Assembly (NCBI GenBank): GCA_035530075.1 | Contig: DATKVM010000005.1 | Span: 87,861 to 151,860 of the forward strand | DNA length: 64,000 nt | Source: Patescibacteria group bacterium | Lineage (GTDB): Bacteria; Patescibacteriota; Microgenomatia; UM-FILTER-40-11 | Reading direction: 5' to 3' | Shown: positions 604 through 49,237 of the stretch, piece after piece | Position numbering within the stretch: position 1 is the first letter of the stretch | Layout: each line of letters starts with the position of its first letter | Made by a program: the position numbers and the translations under genes | The notes under the pieces: generated by a model | Told to the model about the DNA's origin: nothing | What the model saw: the letters and a program-made list of their open reading frames with translations, nothing else | Database searches by the model: none

Positions 604-645
604 AATCAAGAAAACTCCGCCTTCCTGTTGCTTTTTCTGGCGGAG
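604..645 (-). terminator. Hairpin (CTCCGCC/GGCGGAG, 17-nt loop) followed by a U-run on the minus strand, after the ATP-cone gene
   Basis: Inverted repeat 615-621/639-645 with TTTTCTTGATT downstream on the minus strand; the large loop lowers confidence. Confidence 0.3.
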
Positions 646-759
646 CTAGCCTACTTACCCTCCGAAGCTTCTAGCGAAGGAGAGCTTCAACTCTATTTAT
701 TTTACCAAAACCCCAGGCTCAAAGCAACCAGAATTAAATTAATGCCTTTCTTTTAACTC

Positions 760-3730: not shown

Positions 3731-3810
3731 CTTTTTTAAAATCCTTTCTTTAGGAAATCGCTCTCATTCCTCCAGGAATCCATCTATTTTAGCAGTTTTG
3801 GCTTCAAAAC

Positions 3811-6800
3811 TCAAGGCTTCAGTTTCGCCCTTTCCGGGCTAACCGGAATTAAGCGGCCGATAATGACATTTTCTTTCAGTCCGAGTAACTGGTCTTCTTT
3901 GCCCAAAATCGCCGCGTCGGCCAAAATATTGCTGGTTTCTTGGAAAGAGGCCGCCGATAGCCAAGATTCAGTGTATAAAGCAGCGCGAGTTATTCCCAAG
4001 ATAACTTGTTCCGCCGTTGCCAGCGTGCCTTTCTGGGACTTAACTAATTCATTTTCTTCCTCCAGACGCTGTTTGTTAACCAAATCACCAACCAAGAAAA
4101 CGGTTGTCCCTGGGTTCTTAATCCGGACATTTTCGCTCATCATCCGCACCACCGTCTCAAAATGGCGATCGTTAATGGGAATCCCCTGAGATTCATACAC
4201 TGCCTGAATTTCGTTCACCAAATAGCTTTGAGCGTCTCGCAAGCCTTTAACCGCCAAAATGTTTCTCACGTCCAAAGCCCCGGAGGCCAGCTGAGTCCCG
4301 GCAGTCACTTCTTCACCATCCTGAACCTTAAGAGTACTGGTCAATGGAATAATATATTCTCTTTTTTCTCCACCCTTTTTGCTTTCGGCAACCACTATTC
4401 GATAACCGTTATCTTCGGAAACTACTTCTACCTTACCGTCAATTTCCGCCAGCGGAGAAAGCGTTTTCGGCATTCTCACTTCCAAAAGCTCAGTCACCCG
4501 CGGCAGACCCTGGGTCACATCCAAACCGACAATTCCCGCCTGATGCTTCGTTTTGAGAGTTAATTGAGTCCCCGGCTCACCGATAGACTCGGCCGCCAAA
4601 ACCCCTACCGGCACTCCCAATTCTACCGGCTTACGGTTAGCAAAGTTCCACCCATAACATTTCTGGCAAACCCCATGTCGGGCTCGACAAGTTAGGGGCG
4701 AACGAACCACCACCCTTTTAACTTCGCTTTCATCCAAAATCCGAACCTTTACCTCGTCAATTTCCTCATCCCGTTTAAAAAGCGGTTTACCTGTCTTTGA
4801 ATCAATTACCGGCTCCGCCAGATATCGGCCCAAAATTCGAGCAGCAAAGGCTTTACCGCGCGGACCCTCCTTACTAATCTCAACTCCTTCTTTGATGCCG
4901 CAATTTTCCTCGCGTACAATCGCTTCATGAGAAACATCAACTAATTTCCGCGTTAAGTAACCGGCATCTGAGGTCTTCAAGGCCGTATCGGTCAAACCCT
5001 TCCGGGAACCGCGGGTAGTCGTCACATACTCAAAGACGGAAAGACCTTCCCGGAAATTGCTCTTGGTCGGCAAATCCACGATTCTTCCCATCGGGTCGAC
5101 GACTAAACCTCTCATTGCCGAAATCTGTTTAATCGTATCTCGGGAAACCCGGCCCACTCGGGCATCAATGACCAACTTAATGGGATTAGTCTCGTCAATC
5201 ACTTCCCAAGTTTTATCGGCCAGTTCCTCCGTCGTCTCCATCCAAACCCCGCGCACCAATCTCCTTTCTTCATCCAAAGTAATTAAACCCTGGCGGTAAG
5301 TTTCTTCGATTTCAGCCACTCTCTTATCCGCATTGGCGATAATTTGGGCTTTTTCCGGACTCATCTGGCAATCTCTAATGGACAAAGAAACACCGGAAAC
5401 GGTCCCGGCATAAAAACCCAAACTTTTCAAATTGTCAATCAAGGTCACTACTTCTTCGTGGGAGCATTGCTTTAAAGCCTTAGTGAAAAGCTGCTTAATC
5501 GTTCCTTGCTGAACGGCCGTATTAACAAAGCGCAAATTTTCCGGTAAGGCTTCATTGAAAAACAAGCGACCGACCGAAGTCTCCAACACTCCACTGTCGT
5601 TTGGTTTGACCAAAATCGGTTCCCGCAGTTGAGCTTTGCCGCTCTGGTAAGCCAAAATTGCTTCCCGCTCACTATAAACCTTTTCTTTTGCTTTCAGGGT
5701 TGGCTCAAAGGAGGTCAAGTAATAAATGCCCAAAGCCATTTCCTTGCGGTCAGGGGCGTTAATTGGGGTACCGTCCGCCGGTCGCAATAAGTTGTGGTCC
5801 GGCATCATTAAGCTAATCGCTTCTTCCCTCGATTTCCGAGAAAGCGGAACATGAACCGCCATTTGGTCACCATCAAAGTCCGCATTATACCCCTGACAGA
5901 CGCAGGGGTGAATTCTAATGGCGTTCCCCTCAATTAAAATAGGATAAAAAGCCTGAATTCCCAATTTATGGAGGGTGGGGGCACGGTTTAGCAAAACCGG
6001 GTGATTACGGGTAATTTCCTCCAAAATATCGAAAACCTCCGGCGGCCTTCTCTCCAGGATGTTTTTAGCGCTCCGAACATTAGGCGCCACTCCCCGGACA
6101 ATCATTTCCCGTAAGACAAACGGCTTAAACATCTCCAGAGCCATTTCTTTGGGTAAACCACACTGGTTTAAATTCAACTCCGGACCGACAACAATGACTG
6201 ACCGGCCGGAATAATCAACTCTTTTGCCCAAAAGATTTTGTCTAAAGCGACCCTGTTTGCCGCGCAACATATCAGATAAAGAGCGCAAGGCTAGCGTTCT
6301 TCTCGCCCTTTTCTCCCGAACACTCTTCGTCGAATCAATTAGGGAATCAACCGCTTCCTGCAGCATTCTTTTCTCATTGCGCAGAATAATCTCCGGTGCT
6401 CCCAAATCAATTAAATGCTTTAAGCGGTTATTGCGGTTAATGACTCGCCGATAAAGATCATTTAAATCGCTGGTGGCGAACCGGCCACCCGTTAGCTGGA
6501 CCATTGGCCGCAAGTCAGGGGGAATAACGGGCAGAATGGTCAAAACTAGCCAAGAGGGCTCCTGATTGGAACGCAACATTCCCTCAGCCACCCTTAGTCG
6601 CTTAACCGCTCTGATGTACCGCTGTCCGCTAGATTTCTGCATTTCTTCCTTAAGCTCAGCGGTTAATTTTTTAAGGTCAAGTTTCTCAAGGACTTCCAGA
6701 AGGCTTTCTGCTCCCATTGCCACTTTAAAGAAACCGGCAGCGCCGACATCTTTAAGCCGCAGAAAATCTTCTTCTGAAAGAGTCGAGAGTTTCTTTAAGG

Positions 6801-11105: not shown

Positions 11106-12230
11106 TTATCTTAGGTATTTCCCAATATTGGCCACCTGTTCTTCGTCGGTTTTGGCGTAATGCATTGTCCCGTTTTCATCGTTAAGATAATACCAATAGG
11201 GAGAATCTTCCGGATTTAAAACCGCTTTAACCGAAGAAAGGCCGGGGTTACAAATTGGTCCCGGAGGCAAGCCCTGATAAACATAAGTATTATAAGCGGA
11301 TTTAACTTGTAAATCGCTTTGGTTCAGACCCTTGGGCCACCATTCACAAAAAAGTCCCGGCACTTTGCATTTAGCGCTAGCCACCGCGTACTGAACCGTT
11401 GCATCTGCCTGAAGCGGCCAGCCGCGGCGCCACCTTTTTAAAATAATGCTGGCGACCAAGCGACGATCCTTATCGGCCCGAGCTTCTCTTTCAACTATCG
11501 AAGCCAGCGTCAAAACCCCTTTTAAGCTCAAACCGCTCGCCTGGATTTCTGCCTCCAACCCGACTTTGGCTTTTTTCTCAAAATTACGACTAATAATCTT
11601 TAAGATTGCCCCCTGAGTCGCTTTGGGCGGGAAAAAGTAAGTATCGGGAAAAAGCTCACCCTCCAACTTTTGATCGGCAATTGTCTGACACCACTCCTTT
11701 AAGTCAATCACAAAGCCTTTTTCCACCAAAAGTTCGCCAATTTCCTCCTGCCGCAAACCCTCAACAATCGTCACCCGCTGGTCAGTTATCCCTTTAATCA
11801 GTAGCCGGGCAATTTCCGAAACGCCCATCGAAGGGGCAAACTGGTAGACCCCGGCCTGAACTTTCTTGGCTTTACCCGTTAAAAAAAGATAAAGCTTGAA
11901 ATGAAAAGGGCTTCTGATTAAATTGACCTCCTTTAAGCGACTGGCAATCTGAGCCATTGTCTCTCCACGGTCAATCGTAAAAACAACGGTTTTTTGTTTA
12001 CTGGAATCGACCGGCCGTAAACCGCCCAGCCACCAAAAAATTATGGCCAACCAAAGGACAAAAATTAAAATTAGGCCGTAAAAAGCCCACGAAAAAAGTT
12101 CTCTTTTACCAATTTTGGGTTTTAACATCAACTGCCGACTTTTAAACTTCTTCAAAAAGAGCCCGTCGATACTTCTTTGTTTTCCTATCAAGAATGAAAA
12201 TTCGACCGCATTTACAAGTGATTTTCTCAC
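11106..12230 (-). CDS. mltG: Endolytic murein transglycosylase MltG (YceG-like); the true start may be the internal Met at 12128
   Basis: N-terminal TM segment followed by a YceG-like domain (…LPPGPICNPG…, QADATVQYA). Confidence 0.8.
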   Translation of the reverse strand: MRKSLVNAVEFSFLIGKQRSIDGLFLKKFKSRQLMLKPKIGKRELFSWAFYGLILIFVLWLAIIFWWLGGLRPVDSSKQKTVVFTIDRGETMAQIASRLKEVNLIRSPFHFKLYLFLTGKAKKVQAGVYQFAPSMGVSEIARLLIKGITDQRVTIVEGLRQEEIGELLVEKGFVIDLKEWCQTIADQKLEGELFPDTYFFPPKATQGAILKIISRNFEKKAKVGLEAEIQASGLSLKGVLTLASIVEREARADKDRRLVASIILKRWRRGWPLQADATVQYAVASAKCKVPGLFCEWWPKGLNQSDLQVKSAYNTYVYQGLPPGPICNPGLSSVKAVLNPEDSPYWYYLNDENGTMHYAKTDEEQVANIGKYLR

Positions 12231-12342
12231 TCTCTCCCTGCCAATTTTCTTTCTTCCCCGCGCTCAATAAAGCCCCGCAACCAACGCATTGGCCCCGCGA
12301 GAGTAACCAAGCCTGAACCGGAGCGATAATATTCTTGAACAT
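12142..12342 (-). CDS. Small Cys-rich (zinc-ribbon-like) protein, 66 aa
   Basis: CVGCG...CKCG pattern; ATG preceded by AAGGAGGG 7 nt upstream and by a conserved leader hairpin shared with infB. Confidence 0.4.
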   Translation of the reverse strand: MFKNIIAPVQAWLLSRGQCVGCGALLSAGKKENWQGESEKITCKCGRIFILDRKTKKYRRALFEEV

Positions 12343-12371
12343 CTTAGGCCCTCCTTCGACTCGCCGTAGTT

Positions 12372-12755
12372 TTAATGAAGGCGGTCTAAATAAAATTCTA
12401 ACATAATTGCTGCCGCAAAAGCATCCTCTTTTTCGTGCCTAAATTTCCTTTTTCTCTTCAGCTTAAGGAGGAGTTTCTGAGCCTCCTGGCTCGTGAGCGT
12501 TTCATCGAAAAATTCCACTGCCAATCCCGTCTGCTTTCGCAACCGTTCACCAAACCGCCTAATTTCTTCTTCCATCTTCCCTCCCGGCACCCCGACAACA
12601 ATCTTCTCCACTCCTAATTCTTTGGCTAACTTTGCACTTTGCACTTTGAACTTTGAACTTGGCCAGACGGCCAACGGTTCCACCAACCGCGTTTGGGTCT
12701 CCCCCACGGCCAGCCCAATTTTCGCTCTCCCATAATCTATTCCTAATATTTTCAT
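12372..12755 (-). CDS. ruvX: Holliday-junction resolvase-like / pre-16S rRNA nuclease YqgF (RuvX)
   Basis: MKILGIDYGRAKIGLAVGE... canonical RuvX N-terminus, 127 aa. Confidence 0.85.
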   Translation of the reverse strand: MKILGIDYGRAKIGLAVGETQTRLVEPLAVWPSSKFKVQSAKLAKELGVEKIVVGVPGGKMEEEIRRFGERLRKQTGLAVEFFDETLTSQEAQKLLLKLKRKRKFRHEKEDAFAAAIMLEFYLDRLH

Positions 12756-22202: not shown

Positions 22203-22817
22203 ATGAGTAATATCGCTTCAGCAAAAGCATTTGGGCGCTTTGCAACTTCAATAATCCCTCAAAAAGCCACTGATCAAGAAAAAATAGAAGTTATCCAAAA
22301 AGCAGCCAAAAGATACAACTCAGCTGCAGAACCCGAAAAACAGATTTCTCTTTTGTATCATTTTACTGACACGCAAGGAGCGCAGGCAATCAAAGAAACG
22401 CAAATAATAGGTAGAAGAGGGGCAAGACTATATCTTACCCCCGTTTCTCCTAAAATGGCTCAACCATTATGTTCGCCTGAAAATGCCCGCGGGTATGAGA
22501 AATATTTTCGGGACAAAGTTATGCCGGCAAACCTAAAAGAACACTTGGAAAGATTTGTTCTCGGACTTAAGTTTAAATGGGAATATGGTATCCAAATGAA
22601 GGCAAGACAAAAGAAAGGAGAAGCAGTTATTCCCGTTGGAGCTCACAAGCTGGAGAATGTGTTCGCGCTAGCCACTAAAGTCAATAACCCCTCTCTTAAA
22701 AGAGACCAGCAGGGAGAAATTTATATTGAAAAGCCCGTTAAAACAGGTACCGGTTCTGAATTTAGCGTTTTTGGACCGTATAGGCCTGTTACGCCTGGAA
22801 GGTATAAAGCTAGATAA
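22203..22817 (+). CDS. Hypothetical protein (204 aa); its C-terminus is duplicated as a fragment at 19015-19110
   Basis: No domain recognised; ...LLYHFTDTQGAQAIKETQIIG...; 3' end followed by a GC-rich hairpin at 22837-22880. Confidence 0.55.
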   Translation: MSNIASAKAFGRFATSIIPQKATDQEKIEVIQKAAKRYNSAAEPEKQISLLYHFTDTQGAQAIKETQIIGRRGARLYLTPVSPKMAQPLCSPENARGYEKYFRDKVMPANLKEHLERFVLGLKFKWEYGIQMKARQKKGEAVIPVGAHKLENVFALATKVNNPSLKRDQQGEIYIEKPVKTGTGSEFSVFGPYRPVTPGRYKAR

Positions 22818-22898
22818 CGAGATAACAATCTAGCAACCCGCCTGCCTTCGCCTAATGGCAAAACCCATGGCGGGCAGGTGTAACAATGAAACAATAGA

Positions 22899-41946: not shown

Positions 41947-42870
41947 TTACGAAGTAAAGTTCGTCCCTTTAAAAATTTTCGGTTCGAACCAATCAGCCGG
42001 TGGTTTGCTTGGAGGTTGAGGTTTTTCTTCGCTTGCCTTCTTTTCTTCCTGGGGCTTAACAAAAGTGGGGGTAGCCGGCGCTCCCTCCCGCCCCTCAGAT
42101 TTTGCCTTGGGAGTAAAAATCGCTTCCCTTTTAAACGGGGCCGTTTCTTCAAGAGGTTTTTGAGCCCCACTTCTCAAGGCAATCGCCACCGCCTCGTAAG
42201 TGTTCGCTCCTGTTTGGGGTGCCGTTAATCCTCTCGTTCGCCGCCATATTCCCGAAAGCACATTCTGAGCAATATCCACGCTTACCTTTAAACCCAACCC
42301 GACAACTAATCCCAAAGCCACTTCTGACAAAGCCGCCGCTTCTAAATCCACAATATTCAAATGCCCGAAACCAACATTTTGAGGGTCGGCGTCAATATTA
42401 ACTAAAAAACTGTCATTTAAGTTAAAACCCAACGACTGAAGCTGATTTAAGTCCTTAATTCCCAAAGTCATTATTAAGTCTGCTCCCGCTCCCGCGTAAG
42501 CAAAGCCTACTTGATTTCCCTTCAGGGCAGGAGCGCCCACTTTCGGCTGAATGATCACATTTGGACGGTTGTTATCGTCATTGTAGCTCACCTTTTCCAC
42601 CTGGTCGGCCGGATAATTCAAAGAGATAATTAAATCTGTCCCTTGAGCTTCTCCCGCAATCCGATTGACACCAACTAAATGGTTAAATTCCACCGTCATC
42701 GCTGTTGAACAAACTACCGAAACGTTTTTGGCCATTTCTTCCAAGGCCAAAGAAAGCGACAGCCCCGCCGCCACTTGGTCAAAAGAAGGCTTGGCCGGAA
42801 GTAAAATCAAAATCTTTTGGGCCTGATCAAGTCTTTGTCTTAATTCGGGGAAAGGGTAGTCTTGGTTCAT
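41947..42870 (-). CDS. DHH-family-like protein (degenerate; canonical DHH residues not obvious) with a Pro/Lys-rich C-terminal tail
   Basis: N-terminus KILILLPAKPSFDQVAAGLSL resembles the NrnA/DHH start; sits in the infB-...-rpsO operon position where a DHH protein occurs in some bacteria. Confidence 0.45.
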   Translation of the reverse strand: MNQDYPFPELRQRLDQAQKILILLPAKPSFDQVAAGLSLSLALEEMAKNVSVVCSTAMTVEFNHLVGVNRIAGEAQGTDLIISLNYPADQVEKVSYNDDNNRPNVIIQPKVGAPALKGNQVGFAYAGAGADLIMTLGIKDLNQLQSLGFNLNDSFLVNIDADPQNVGFGHLNIVDLEAAALSEVALGLVVGLGLKVSVDIAQNVLSGIWRRTRGLTAPQTGANTYEAVAIALRSGAQKPLEETAPFKREAIFTPKAKSEGREGAPATPTFVKPQEEKKASEEKPQPPSKPPADWFEPKIFKGTNFTS

Positions 42871-42892: not shown

Positions 42893-44320
42893 TTATTTTT
42901 CCTCTAGGCTGTAAGATAATATCATATCCCCTTCTTTAAAATCAACTTTGCCGGCAAAGACAATACCAAATTCTGTGCCCACCACTGCCTCATTAATGTC
43001 TTGCTTTTCCTGCTTTAACGAGGTAACTTTAGTTTCGGCAATAATTTGGTTATCTCTCTGCACCACAATCGGCCGATTGCGATTGATTTTCCCTTCTAAA
43101 ACCCGGGCACCCGCAATTTTTTCGCCTCGGATATCAAAAGCGGCAATAATCTCCGCTTTGCCTAGTATTTTACGATCAATTGTCGGCTCCAATATCTTTA
43201 AAATTCTTTTCTCTAGGTCTCCTAAAAGATCATAAATGATTCTAAAACTCTTCACTTTTACTCCTTCGGTTTCCGCCAATTTAGCCACTGTTCCCCGGAG
43301 AGGCAAATTAAAAGTATAGATTCCCACTCCAAAGGTTTTAGCCAGCAGAACATCTGATTCCGTTACCTCCCCAACCCCGGCTTCGGCCACCTGAACTTCA
43401 TCTGGTAAACAATTTAAAATTGCTTCCAAAGAACCGGCCACATCGGCTTTAAGAATAATGCTTAATTTTCCCTCTGGTTTCGGCGCTAAAGCCGGCCTTT
43501 GACTAACAGCGGCTGCCTCCCCCTCCGGGGGTATTTCACCCAAGCGCCGAACTACGGCTCCCACCGCCGGCAAAGAAGTGAAACCTAGAATCTGCGCCGG
43601 GTCAGCCGGTTTAGCGTCGCTAACTGCCCGACCCCACTCATCTTTTAAAAGCTTCACTTTAGCCGTCACCCCATCCGCCGTTAGCCGGTCACCTTTCTTC
43701 AGCGTGCCGTTCTTAATCACCACGGTTCCCACTGGTCCGCAGAATTTATCGGCTTTAGCCTCAATAACTTCCGCTTCTAGAGTTCCGGCCGGGTCAGCTT
43801 TTAGCTCTTCCATTTCCGCTGTCAGCAAAATCATTTCCAAAAGCTGGTCTACTCCTTGACCGGTTTTAGCCGAAAGGGGAACGGCCACGACATTACCACC
43901 ATAGCCTTCCACTAAAACTCCATTCTCCGCCAGCTGGGTTTTAACTTTGTCAATTGATGCTCCCGGCAAGTCAATTTTGTTTAACGCAATAATCACGGGA
44001 ACATTGGCCTCCTTAATAATCTTAATTGACTCCAGGGTCTGAGGCATCACTCCATCGTTGACCGCGATAACCAAAACCACGATGTCAGCTACCTTTGCTC
44101 CTCGACTGCGCATTTCGGAAAAGGCAGCGTGACCTGGGGTATCGATAAAAGTGATTTTTTTGCCCTTAAACTCAATCTGGTAAGCGCCAATCGCCTGGGT
44201 AATTTCCCCAATCTCTTTGGCGGCCAGTTTAGTTTTGCGGATATAATCCAAAAGCGTCGTTTTGCCGTGGTCAACATGGCCTAAGATAGTCACGACTGGT
44301 GGTTTTTCTGGAAGTGCCAT
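42893..44320 (-). CDS. infB: Translation initiation factor IF-2 (short form, G domain onward)
   Basis: PVVTILGHVDHGKTTLLD...DTPGHAAF...NKID GTPase motifs; 475 aa. Confidence 0.93.
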   Translation of the reverse strand: MALPEKPPVVTILGHVDHGKTTLLDYIRKTKLAAKEIGEITQAIGAYQIEFKGKKITFIDTPGHAAFSEMRSRGAKVADIVVLVIAVNDGVMPQTLESIKIIKEANVPVIIALNKIDLPGASIDKVKTQLAENGVLVEGYGGNVVAVPLSAKTGQGVDQLLEMILLTAEMEELKADPAGTLEAEVIEAKADKFCGPVGTVVIKNGTLKKGDRLTADGVTAKVKLLKDEWGRAVSDAKPADPAQILGFTSLPAVGAVVRRLGEIPPEGEAAAVSQRPALAPKPEGKLSIILKADVAGSLEAILNCLPDEVQVAEAGVGEVTESDVLLAKTFGVGIYTFNLPLRGTVAKLAETEGVKVKSFRIIYDLLGDLEKRILKILEPTIDRKILGKAEIIAAFDIRGEKIAGARVLEGKINRNRPIVVQRDNQIIAETKVTSLKQEKQDINEAVVGTEFGIVFAGKVDFKEGDMILSYSLEEK

Positions 44321-44405
44321 ATCTTCCCTCCTTGGTTTGCCGTAGTTTTAACGAAGGCAACCTTAAACTGCCCATATCTACCAGCTGCCAAGAAGGCAAC
44401 TAATT

Positions 44406-47329: not shown

Positions 47330-49237
47330 TTAACTGACTACCTCGCCTTCTTCGACTTTATCCTCGGCTTTGGGTTCTTCACCTTTAGTCTCTGCCTCGC
47401 CCGCCGAAGCTTCGGCGGAGGCGGGTCCACCTTGCTGTCCTGCCGAACCATACATCGCCGCTCCGACTTTCTGGATGGCTTCGGATAAAGCGTTGGTTCC
47501 GCTCTCGATCTCTGAAACCTGCTCGCTTTTAAGCGCTTCTCTTAGAGTCGCAATTTTATCTTCGACTGCCTTCTTCTCGGCCGCCTTCACTTTATCACCA
47601 GCGTCTTTAAGCGTTTTCTCGCTGGTATAGATAAGGTTTTCCGCTTGGTTCTTGGTCTCAATGACTTTCCTTTTCGTCTCGTCCTCGGTCGCATGCGCCT
47701 CCGCTTCCTTAGTCATCTTCTCCACTTCGTCCTTAGAAAGGCCGGTGGAACCCTTAATAGAAACGCTTTGACTGCGACCAGTCGCCTTATCCTTGGCGGT
47801 AACATTCAAAATGCCATTGGCATCCAAATCAAAGGAAACTTCAATTTGGGGCACTCCTCGCGGAGCCGGGGGAATTCCGTCCAGAATAAACCGTCCCAAC
47901 GACTGGTTGTCCACTGCCATTGGCCGTTCTCCCTGCAAGACATTAATTTCCACCTGAGTCTGGTTATCAGCGGCGGTGGAAAAAACCTGAGATTTGGCGG
48001 TTGGAATAGTAGTGTTCCGGGCAATCAAAGGCGTAGAAACCCCTCCCAAGGTTTCAATCCCCAAAGTTAGAGGAGTCACATCCAGCAAGAGGACATCTTT
48101 CACTTCACCCCCCAAAACTCCTCCTTGAATCGCGGCGCCAATGGCCACCACCTCGTCCGGATTTACCGAACGGTTCGGTTCTTTGCCAAAAAATTTCTTG
48201 ACTGTCTCAAAAACTTTCGGCATCCGGGTCATTCCTCCCACCATCACGATTTCATCAATGTCTTTAATCTCTTTGCTAGCATCCTTCAGGCAAAGTTTAA
48301 CCGGTTCTACCGTTTTTTGAACCAGCTCGTCAACTAAGCTTTCCAACTTAGATCGACTTAGCTTCATCGTTAAGTGAAGCGGATTGCCGTTTTTGCCCTG
48401 AGTAATAAATGGCTGGTTAATCTCTGCCTCCATTGAGGAAGAGAGTTCAATTTTGACTTTCTCTGCCGCTTCGCGCAATCGCTGCAAAGCCTGGGGGTCC
48501 TTACGCAAATCAACCCCGTTTTCTTTCTTAAATTCCTCGGCGATAAAATTCAAAATCACCTGGTCAAAATCATCACCACCCAGATGAGTATCACCATTAG
48601 TTGCCTTAACCTCATAAACACCGTCGCCCAGCTCCAAAATGGAAATATCGAAAGTTCCCCCTCCTAAATCATAAACGGCAATGGTGTGAGCATTTTTCTT
48701 ATCCAAGCCATAAGCCAAAGCGGCCGCCGTCGGCTCATTAATAATTCTTAAAACTTCGAGTCCGGCGATTTCTCCTGCTTGCTTAGTTGCTTGCCTTTGT
48801 GAATCATCAAAGTAAGCAGGAACAGTGATTACCGCTTGAATAACTTTGCCCCCTAAGTAGGCCTCGGCATCCGCTTTAATTTTCTGCAAAATCATCGCGG
48901 ATATCTCTTGAGGGGTAAAATTCCTGCCTCGAACTTCGACTACCGCCATACCGTCTCGCCCCTCTTTAATGCTGTAAGGCAGCCACTGAATATCATGCTG
49001 TACCGACTTCTCGGAATATTTTTTGCCCATCAGCCTTTTAATAGAAAAAACCGTCTCTTTAGGCTTAATCACCATTTGCCTTTTAGCAACATCTCCAACG
49101 ACATGAGCAATCGGATCGACGATTGAAGGAATCACGTTTCTTCCCTCGGCCGAATAAATTACTTTTGGGCTGCCACCCTCCATTACGGCGACGCAAGAGT
49201 TGGTAGTACCTAAATCAATGCCAATTATTTTTCCCAT
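47330..49237 (-). CDS. dnaK: Molecular chaperone DnaK (Hsp70)
   Basis: [18 protein letters not shown]...DLGGGTFD... canonical Hsp70. Confidence 0.97.

Follow-up and report, generated by a model that had tools for sequence, protein, structure and literature searches.

Two intercistronic hairpins in a Patescibacteria contig: probable copies of a dispersed, REP-like miniature palindrome

REP elements (repetitive extragenic palindromes) of the GTAG- and CGTC-tagged super-families occur together with REP-associated tyrosine transposases (RAYTs, Y1/HUH) (Di Nocera et al. 2013, PMC3733652). Here we describe a hairpin repeat of about 30 nt, two copies of which lie on the minus strand of a 64,000-nt stretch of a Patescibacteria group bacterium (GenBank assembly GCA_035530075.1, contig DATKVM010000005.1, positions 87,861 to 151,860; the whole stretch is called the window, and coordinates refer to it). 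Copy 1 is in the spacer between nusA and infB, copy 2 at the junction of ruvX and an open reading frame (ORF) of 66 amino acids. Both are probably members of a dispersed, REP-like family of miniature mobile palindromes and not dedicated leaders of infB. Like the 20-40-nt REPs, the element (29-31 nt, with a 6-7-bp stem) is an imperfect palindrome that is interspersed in either orientation, is sometimes intragenic, is often clustered or nested with other repeats, has a short unpaired tail at one end, and in operons would be transcribed as an mRNA hairpin. It differs from REPs in its 3'-terminal tail, which is CAAG or CAGG instead of GTAG or CGTC (GTAG occurs only in the loop, on the complementary strand), and in having a conserved loop and a variable stem. 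Moreover, its core is found in about 15 or more phyla, whereas REP families are restricted to a species, a genus or a related group; its copy number appears low, whereas classical REPs are present in tens to hundreds of copies; and no RAYT was seen in the 8-kb flanks of the copies.

Three other systems invite comparison. Rickettsia palindromic elements (RPEs) were reportedly presented by Ogata et al. in 2000 as 'selfish DNA in protein-coding genes'. As with RPEs, a palindrome is inserted in frame into housekeeping genes and adds a short peptide at permissive positions, but RPEs are about 100-150 bp long and confined to Rickettsia, whereas the present element is about 30 nt long, encodes 9-10 residues and occurs in many phyla. 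The IS200/IS605 insertion sequences and their non-autonomous derivatives (palindrome-associated transposable elements, PATEs) carry subterminal hairpins and move by single-strand 'peel and paste' transposition. IS200/IS605 belongs to the HUH superfamily (PMC6006769). The likeness to this group consists in a putative recognition unit that is an imperfect hairpin, mispaired in its inner stem, in insertion without target-site duplication (seen in Berkiella, see below), and in a hint of bias towards the strand exposed on the lagging-strand template. IS200/IS605 elements have, however, two different ends and a length of at least 100 bp, whereas one 31-nt hairpin is the apparent whole unit here; in addition, no conserved target tetranucleotide was discernible for the element, and no transposase (TnpA) was found in the 8-kb flanks. 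Finally, E. coli REPs are said to control both translation and the stability of mRNA (Newbury and co-workers in 1987; Liang, Rudd and Deutscher in 2015). Copy 2 similarly places a hairpin in an operon within a few nucleotides of a stop codon, but the stop codon is inside the loop and not 5' of the hairpin.

Copy 1 occupies positions 44334-44362 of the minus strand, in a spacer reading ...ggttGCCTTCGTTAAAACTACGGCaaaccAAGGAGGGaagatATG. Its arms (GGTTGCC and GGCAA(A)CC, with a bulged A) enclose the apical 14 nt TTCGTTAAAACTAC (44342-44355), and its 20-nt core GCCTTCGTTAAAACTACGGC (44339-44358) is an exact match to the core used for searching. The 3' arm adjoins the Shine-Dalgarno (SD) sequence of infB, AAGGAGGG (44326-44333), which is followed by the infB start codon ATG at 44318-44320. 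Copy 2 lies at 12358-12386, also on the minus strand, at a junction reading ...gaccGCCTTCATTAAAACTACGGCgagtcgAAGGAGGGcctaagATG; it consists of the arms GACCGCC and GGCG(A)GTC (bulged A), the apical 14 nt TTCATTAAAACTAC (12366-12379) and the core GCCTTCATTAAAACTACGGC (12363-12382). The SD sequence of the 66-aa ORF, again AAGGAGGG (12349-12356), comes two bases (12356-12357) past the 3' arm, with the ATG at 12340-12342. Each hairpin thus has a 7-bp stem with one bulged A, the apical 14 nt differ at one base (G/A), and the arms differ between the copies with pairing kept in both. The main features had been recognized in the original prediction: a pair of minus-strand hairpins with nearly the same 14-nt loop and with different but complementary stems, each followed about 10 nt later by the same sequence and an ATG. 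It covered the same two objects with boundaries a few bases off, and it missed that the TAA stop codon of ruvX (12372-12374, minus strand) lies within the loop of copy 2. The ruvX gene is the ORF 12372-12755, and its last four codons (DRLH) are element sequence. Pfam searches identified NusA, a short IF2, RuvX and YceG/MltG among the neighbours; the gene order is nusA-infB-...-rpsO-pnp around copy 1 and alaS-sortase-ruvX-orf66-mltG around copy 2.

When a 19-mer was searched with up to three mismatches, only the two copies matched in the window; 0.02 matches were expected from shuffled sequences. In a scan of the window with a covariance model built from aligned copies of the element (see below), copy 1 scored 44.8 bits (E = 1.8e-8) and copy 2 37.6 bits, the next best hit reaching 17 bits. 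The thermodynamic stability of both hairpins is modest: the predicted folding energies are -7.7 kcal/mol (z -0.13) and -9.1 kcal/mol (z -2.5) for copies 1 and 2 as RNA, and -3.6 and -4.6 kcal/mol as DNA. In the predicted folds the SD sequence, although adjoining, is not sequestered by either hairpin.

The distribution of the element was determined by an exact search with the 20-mer GCCTTCRTTAAAACTACGGC in 596 Gb of sequence containing one genome per species. At least 118 stretches from 96 assemblies (counted by accession prefix) matched, representing roughly 15 or more phyla, whereas about two matches were expected by chance if equal base frequencies are assumed. At least 124 copies of the exact core are present outside the window, with up to five loci per assembly among the matches listed. 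By record title they belong to many classes of Patescibacteria, to Planctomycetota, Verrucomicrobiota and Lentisphaeria, Bacteroidota and Ignavibacteria, Cloacimonadota, Armatimonadota, and further to Acidobacteriota, Fibrobacteria, Spirochaetia, Alpha- and Gammaproteobacteria (including several Berkiella contigs), Deltaproteobacteria with Syntrophobacterales, Dependentiae, Methylomirabilis and others. Alignment of 119 distinct copies gave the consensus A-YCCGCC-TTCGTTAAAACTAC-GGCGGR-CAAG, with a 6-bp stem and near-invariant apical 14 nt. The search pattern left no freedom to the pairs of the core, so covariation can be judged from the three outer pairs only. Two of these covary clearly (columns 6-31: CG 52, UA 30, UG 17, AU 6; columns 8-29: CG 80, UA 16, AU 6, UG 5), the score being 0.191 compared with 0.099 in shuffles, none of 500 of which scored as high. 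Pairing amounts to 86% in the proposed structure and to 25-50% in slid registers. A structured and recurrent element, as originally predicted, is therefore supported by the covarying stem and the constrained loop, and the further instances that the prediction called for exist in large number.

Insertion of the element is seen in Berkiella. Empty GTAG REPs of these bacteria read GTAGGGGACGAC-CTCTGTG-TCGTCCC, and filled ones GTAGGGGACGAC-CTCTG[CCTGCCTTGCCGTAGTTTTAACGAAGGCAGG]TG-TCGT, the loop holding the exact 31-nt unit CCTGCCTTGCCGTAGTTTTAACGAAGGCAGG. Both ends of the insertion can be placed to 1 nt, and the target is not duplicated. Genuine GTAG REPs are here the site of insertion, so that the element is not one of them. 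The sequence before the insertion, read on the complementary strand, is CCTCC for both window copies and CTCTG in Berkiella, and over the three clear sites no common fixed target could be defined. Deltaproteobacteria, Syntrophobacterales, Ignavibacteria and Pirellulales carry the hairpin inside longer lineage-specific repeats, some of them nested-looking.

The Berkiella loci L008, L018, L069, L076, L037 and L074 are rich in classical GTAG REPs (GTAGGGGnnnnC-CTCYGYG-...CCC), which often form inverted pairs; several of them hold the 31-nt hairpin in the loop. A compound repeat of about 80 nt, TCCGCC-TTCGCTAGAGCT-[hairpin]-ACAAGTC-GGCGGA-CAGG, looks like a hairpin nested in the loop of a related hairpin. 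It is present in Deltaproteobacteria, Syntrophobacterales and Verrucomicrobiota (L010, L013, L022, L025, L027, L031, L062 and L112) and also inside uvrA of L098.

At the infB site the window was compared with five close relatives (L119 and L207-L210) whose IF2 is 71-83% identical. None of the five nusA-infB spacers contains the element. They are 15-30 nt long, compared with 85 nt in the window, and in four relatives the sequence is TAA-tatttgctctc-AAGGAGG-aag-ATG or nearly so; the 15-nt spacer of L210 differs and has no AAGGAGG. Because element-free relatives retain ...ctcAAGGAGGaagATG at the SD position, the SD sequence of infB must be pre-existing host sequence outside the repeat, and copy 1 is dispensable, as the relatives do without it. 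The spacer of the window also contains about 55 extra nt upstream of copy 1, and the whole of about 64 nt is absent from the relatives. This lineage-specific segment includes, at 44366-44401 of the minus strand, a second hairpin, AGTTGCC-TTCTTGGCAGCTGGTAGATATG-GGCAGTT, with a 22-nt loop, which repeats the 5' arm GTTGCCTTC and may be a degenerate or rearranged second copy.

The ruvX site was compared in the relatives L202-L206. A 32-nt insert between TATTTA and GGAGG is shared by the window, L202 and L203. The orthologues of copy 2 in the latter two are identical at 29 of the 32 nt (91%), whereas third codon positions of ruvX and the 66-aa ORF are only 46-71% identical to those of relatives. 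L202 has a compensatory change (C-G to T-A) in the innermost pair, and the 17 non-coding nt after the ruvX stop are 88-94% conserved. Copy 2 is decayed in L204 and L206; in L204 the frame is shifted and RuvX ends in ...ETAFVKTAAN. L205, whose RuvX is 79% identical, is without the element: its genes overlap (GGAGGACTTAAAAATGTTTAA; ATGTTTAA) and GGAGGacttaaaaATG stands at the position of the SD sequence of the 66-aa ORF. The P0008 lineage also lacks copy 2. The C-terminus of RuvX varies accordingly, being DRLH, DRFH, DRLR, DRLC, GRLC or SRLR in the relatives and LKNV where the element is missing. The element is thus gained and lost at orthologous sites, and it is tolerated in both orientations, in spacers as well as in frame within genes.

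This tolerance is apparent from the positions of the copies. Of the copies that separate co-directional genes, 17 are in sense and 10 in antisense orientation; 11 copies lie between convergent or divergent genes, and 26 are inside long ORFs (17 sense, 9 antisense). The sense in-frame copies, in genes for TruB, UvrC, PheT, UvrA, Hsp20, RecA and a pyridoxal-phosphate (PLP) decarboxylase, encode AFVKTTAGK or PSLKLR; the antisense ones, in genes for an M23 peptidase and FecR, encode AVVLTKAG. Most in-gene copies are at protein termini or in linkers between Pfam domains. The element can be read through in four of its six frames, and the stop codon of ruvX uses the sense frame that bears TAA. Every in-gene copy detected leaves the frame open, so programmed translational bypass was rejected as an explanation for these copies. 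Arm mismatches of the C.A and G.T types would be wobble pairs in sense RNA in 26 cases and in antisense RNA in 35; these near-equal numbers argue against selection on one RNA strand.

There is a hint of a preference for one DNA strand. Of 103 loci, 64 have the motif on their G-rich strand (p = 0.018), as do 25 of the 33 loci with an absolute skew above 0.08, but this bias is moderate and confounded with gene orientation (r = 0.61). As GC skew of the plus strand is negative throughout the window, both window copies are on the G-rich strand. The finished chromosome CP070735.1 has three copies on the plus strand at 0.13-1.0 Mb and one on the minus strand at 2.9 Mb. With the position of the origin being putative, the strands of these copies and the skew bias would be compatible with preferential use of the strand exposed on the lagging-strand template.

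Two unusual surroundings were seen. In a Dojkabacteria contig (L003, 6928-7094) two tandem 86-nt units with one hairpin copy each lie within an rRNA operon, after the 16S rRNA gene (3748-5345) and two tRNA genes. Two repeat-rich contigs of Ignavibacteria contain segments of group II introns (L063, 1712-1867 and 6399-6491; L090, 265-362) and hairpin copies with identical flanks of 70-270 nt; introns and copies are separated by about 1 kb or more, and no direct link between them could be seen.

Taken as a mobile palindrome, the element would spread through the insertion of a single strand in folded form, which is probably DNA exposed on the lagging-strand template. That such a folded strand is recognized is implied by the arms, which covary, together with the loop, which is fixed. 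We infer that a trans-acting enzyme, most likely one of the HUH/Y1 type as for REPs and the ends of IS200/IS605, reads the loop and the inner stem with its mismatches; no mobilizing enzyme was identified in the 8-kb flanks of the copies. Copy 1 would have been inserted recently and in this lineage only, immediately 5' of the SD sequence that infB already had, and copy 2 would be an older insertion that may have replaced an overlapping arrangement of the ruvX stop codon and the start of the next ORF and now supplies the last four ruvX codons and the stop. Both copies are predicted to be transcribed within operons, forming an intercistronic mRNA hairpin next to an SD sequence that is left free. 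Any effect on mRNA stability or translational coupling would then be a by-product, possibly a useful one at the ruvX junction.

The original prediction had read the two hairpins as a structured cis-regulatory RNA. As a dedicated leader, the sense hairpin would bind a protein or ligand and control translation of infB and of the small ORF/mltG. The comparison of the nusA-infB spacers largely refutes this for infB, five orthologous leaders being without the element, and as a general explanation it has become highly improbable. About a third of the copies are antisense and about a fifth lie within coding sequence, including in-frame positions in housekeeping genes; others are in the loops of other repeats or in an rRNA operon spacer; the hairpin leaves the SD sequence unsequestered; and searches of Rfam 15 returned nothing overlapping the element, whether for the whole window (gathering thresholds), for the leader (E <= 10) or for eight loci (E <= 0.1). 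What a leader RNA would explain is that both window copies are sense and lie in 5' leaders next to a strong SD sequence, that the stem covaries around a conserved loop, and that in other Patescibacteria some copies are found just 5' of genes with high expression, which from their first codons were read as tuf (L030), groEL (L026), rpsB (L096) and ssb (L113). Chance similarity or a local duplication in this genome would agree with there being only two copies in the window, with short stems, but it can be dismissed: shuffles predict 0.02 matches where two are present, at least 124 exact copies exist elsewhere, and the flanks are unrelated. The two loci are alike only over the core of about 20 nt and the SD sequence and therefore do not belong to a longer simple duplication, one of the two circumstances named beforehand as together fatal to the prediction; a GGCAGC shared further upstream, which might suggest a longer duplication, represents conserved ruvX codons.

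A further alternative is a DNA-level site, inherited vertically and immobile, for a conserved replication, repair or topology protein acting on the folded lagging-strand template. The identical core across phyla, the low copy number, orientation independent of transcription, the moderate bias to the G-rich strand and the distribution of the copies in CP070735.1 (where the origin is putative) would all be consistent with such a site, yet we consider it unlikely, because presence and absence at orthologous sites, insertions into REP loops and genes, and the lineage-specific compound repeats all point to insertion events; moreover, no candidate protein is known. There is a somewhat better, but still minor, chance that copy 2 has been domesticated as an mRNA hairpin kept by selection at the ruvX junction. 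Its role could be to define the end of ruvX, to separate or adjust the translation of the 66-aa ORF and mltG, or to shield the polycistronic mRNA or direct its processing, as REPs do in E. coli. The preservation of 29 of 32 nt in L202 and L203 against 46-71% at third positions, the compensatory change in the innermost pair of L202, the 88-94% conservation of the 17 non-coding nt past the stop, and the placement of the stop in the loop and of the SD sequence after the 3' arm speak for it. On the other hand, the comparison covers just 32 nt, this stretch is partly constrained anyway since ruvX codons, the stop and the SD neighbourhood fall within it, and decay in L204 and L206 and absence from L205 and the P0008 lineage show that the copy is dispensable. 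Site-specific conservation was seen for the ruvX-junction copy only, and there it may reflect a local role. Comparably tentative is the idea that a single 31-nt hairpin is a complete mobile unit read by a universally conserved host factor that acts on folded single-stranded nucleic acid, with no dedicated transposase, and that copies such as the one at the ruvX junction are recruited as intercistronic signals. Such a reader would account for a 20-nt core that is identical in roughly 15 or more phyla.

Several observations weigh against a REP-like mobile palindrome. A 20-nt core shared unchanged among phyla departs from the species- or genus-specific REPs and demands either very recent wide transfer or a universal reader. 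Blastn searches of plasmids (7.3 Gb) and phages (2.3 Gb) gave chance partial matches only, and an exact search of 2.9 million viral contigs gave a single match. No protein family, transposases included, was enriched in the 8-kb flanks. The copy number looks low, with two copies in the 64-kb window and no extra ones in 98 kb of close relatives, where the covariance model found the ruvX-site copies only; about 480 kb of infB neighbourhoods contained one variant with up to three substitutions. The strand bias has the confounding mentioned above, all listed records with the exact core are metagenome-assembled genomes, and the conservation of copy 2 above that of third positions suggests selection at the ruvX site and not pure selfishness.

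On balance the element is probably of a known kind, a REP-like repeat, with unusual cross-phylum conservation, the local biology of the two window copies being probably incidental. Full-text searches of the literature, by nucleotide sequence (DNA and RNA), by encoded peptide and by topic (REPs, RAYTs, in-frame palindromes), retrieved no description; their coverage was incomplete and an earlier description is possible. REP-like repeats are generally regarded as specific to a lineage and as depending on RAYTs that are equally lineage-specific. A loop that stays the same in Patescibacteria, Planctomycetota and Gammaproteobacteria, on a stem that drifts, does not fit this picture, and neither does insertion into single-stranded loops without target duplication. 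Together they point to a very promiscuous mobilizing system or to a universal reader of folded single strands. If the 31-nt hairpin were indeed a complete mobile unit, it would be among the smallest known, and present even in the reduced genomes of Patescibacteria. The ruvX-junction copies, being intact, compensated, decayed or absent, form a natural series on when selfish hairpins turn into useful mRNA signals. For annotation, the hairpin should not be scored as a riboswitch or leader of infB; real proteins gain AFVKTTAGK, PSLKLRR or AVVLTKAG from in-frame copies, and spurious ORFs result from copies in spacers.

Some other identities of the motif were considered and rejected. By inspection, the spacings do not fit a sigma-54 or sigma-70 promoter. 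A mimic of the tRNA T-loop (UUCRA) would have A at position 5, where the element has U, and for a sarcin-ricin/loop-E motif (GUA/GAA, complementary strand) the register would clash with the GCC/GGC stem. Resemblance to the tag region of tmRNA or to the 16S sequence GCCGUAAACGAUG requires gaps and was judged to be due to chance.

The window contains four weaker, tentative relatives of the hairpin, alike in the arms and different in the loop. The best, at 47400-47425 of the minus strand (17 bits, E = 0.06), reads CCCGCC-TCCGCCGAAGCTTC-GGCGGG-CGAGG; it has the same arms and tail with another loop, encodes 12 residues in the 3' coding tail of the ORF 47330-49237, and resembles an intragenic sister variant of the repeat. 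Presumably this ORF is dnaK, since HSP70 is carried by the syntenic gene of relatives, in the grpE-dnaJ interval. A similar sequence, GCCTCCGCTAAAGCTACGGC (PASAKATAGK), is present in the 3' tail of nusA in L122. The other three are CTCCGCC-17 nt-GGCGGAG at 615-645 (plus strand, 14.5 bits), the adjacent and oppositely oriented CTCC-TTCGCTAGAAGCTTC-GGAG-GGTAAG at 657-685 (minus strand, 7.9 bits), and GCCTGCC-TTCGCCTAATGGCAAAACCCAT-GGCGGGC-AGG at 22840-22875 (plus strand, 12.3 bits), 3' of the ORF 22203-22817.

Some neighbouring genes deserve mention. The Cys-rich 66-aa ORF between ruvX and mltG (12142-12342, minus strand) has no Pfam match and overlaps the GTG start of mltG in the listed longest ORF; it must be a real gene, since it is exactly 66 aa long in five relatives and 82-93% identical at codon positions 1 and 2. 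In L206 a gene for an rve_3 integrase (4300-5202, IS-like) lies between mltG and rpoB; the integrase gene is absent from the window and the other relatives. IF2 (42893-44320, minus strand) has only 475 aa and starts at the G domain (MALPEKPPVVTILGHVDHGKTT), the N-terminal region lacking here as in all relatives retrieved. Directly 3' of infB is an ORF of 307 aa (41947-42870, minus strand) that belongs to no Pfam family and whose position and length (307-319 aa) are kept in L207-L210.
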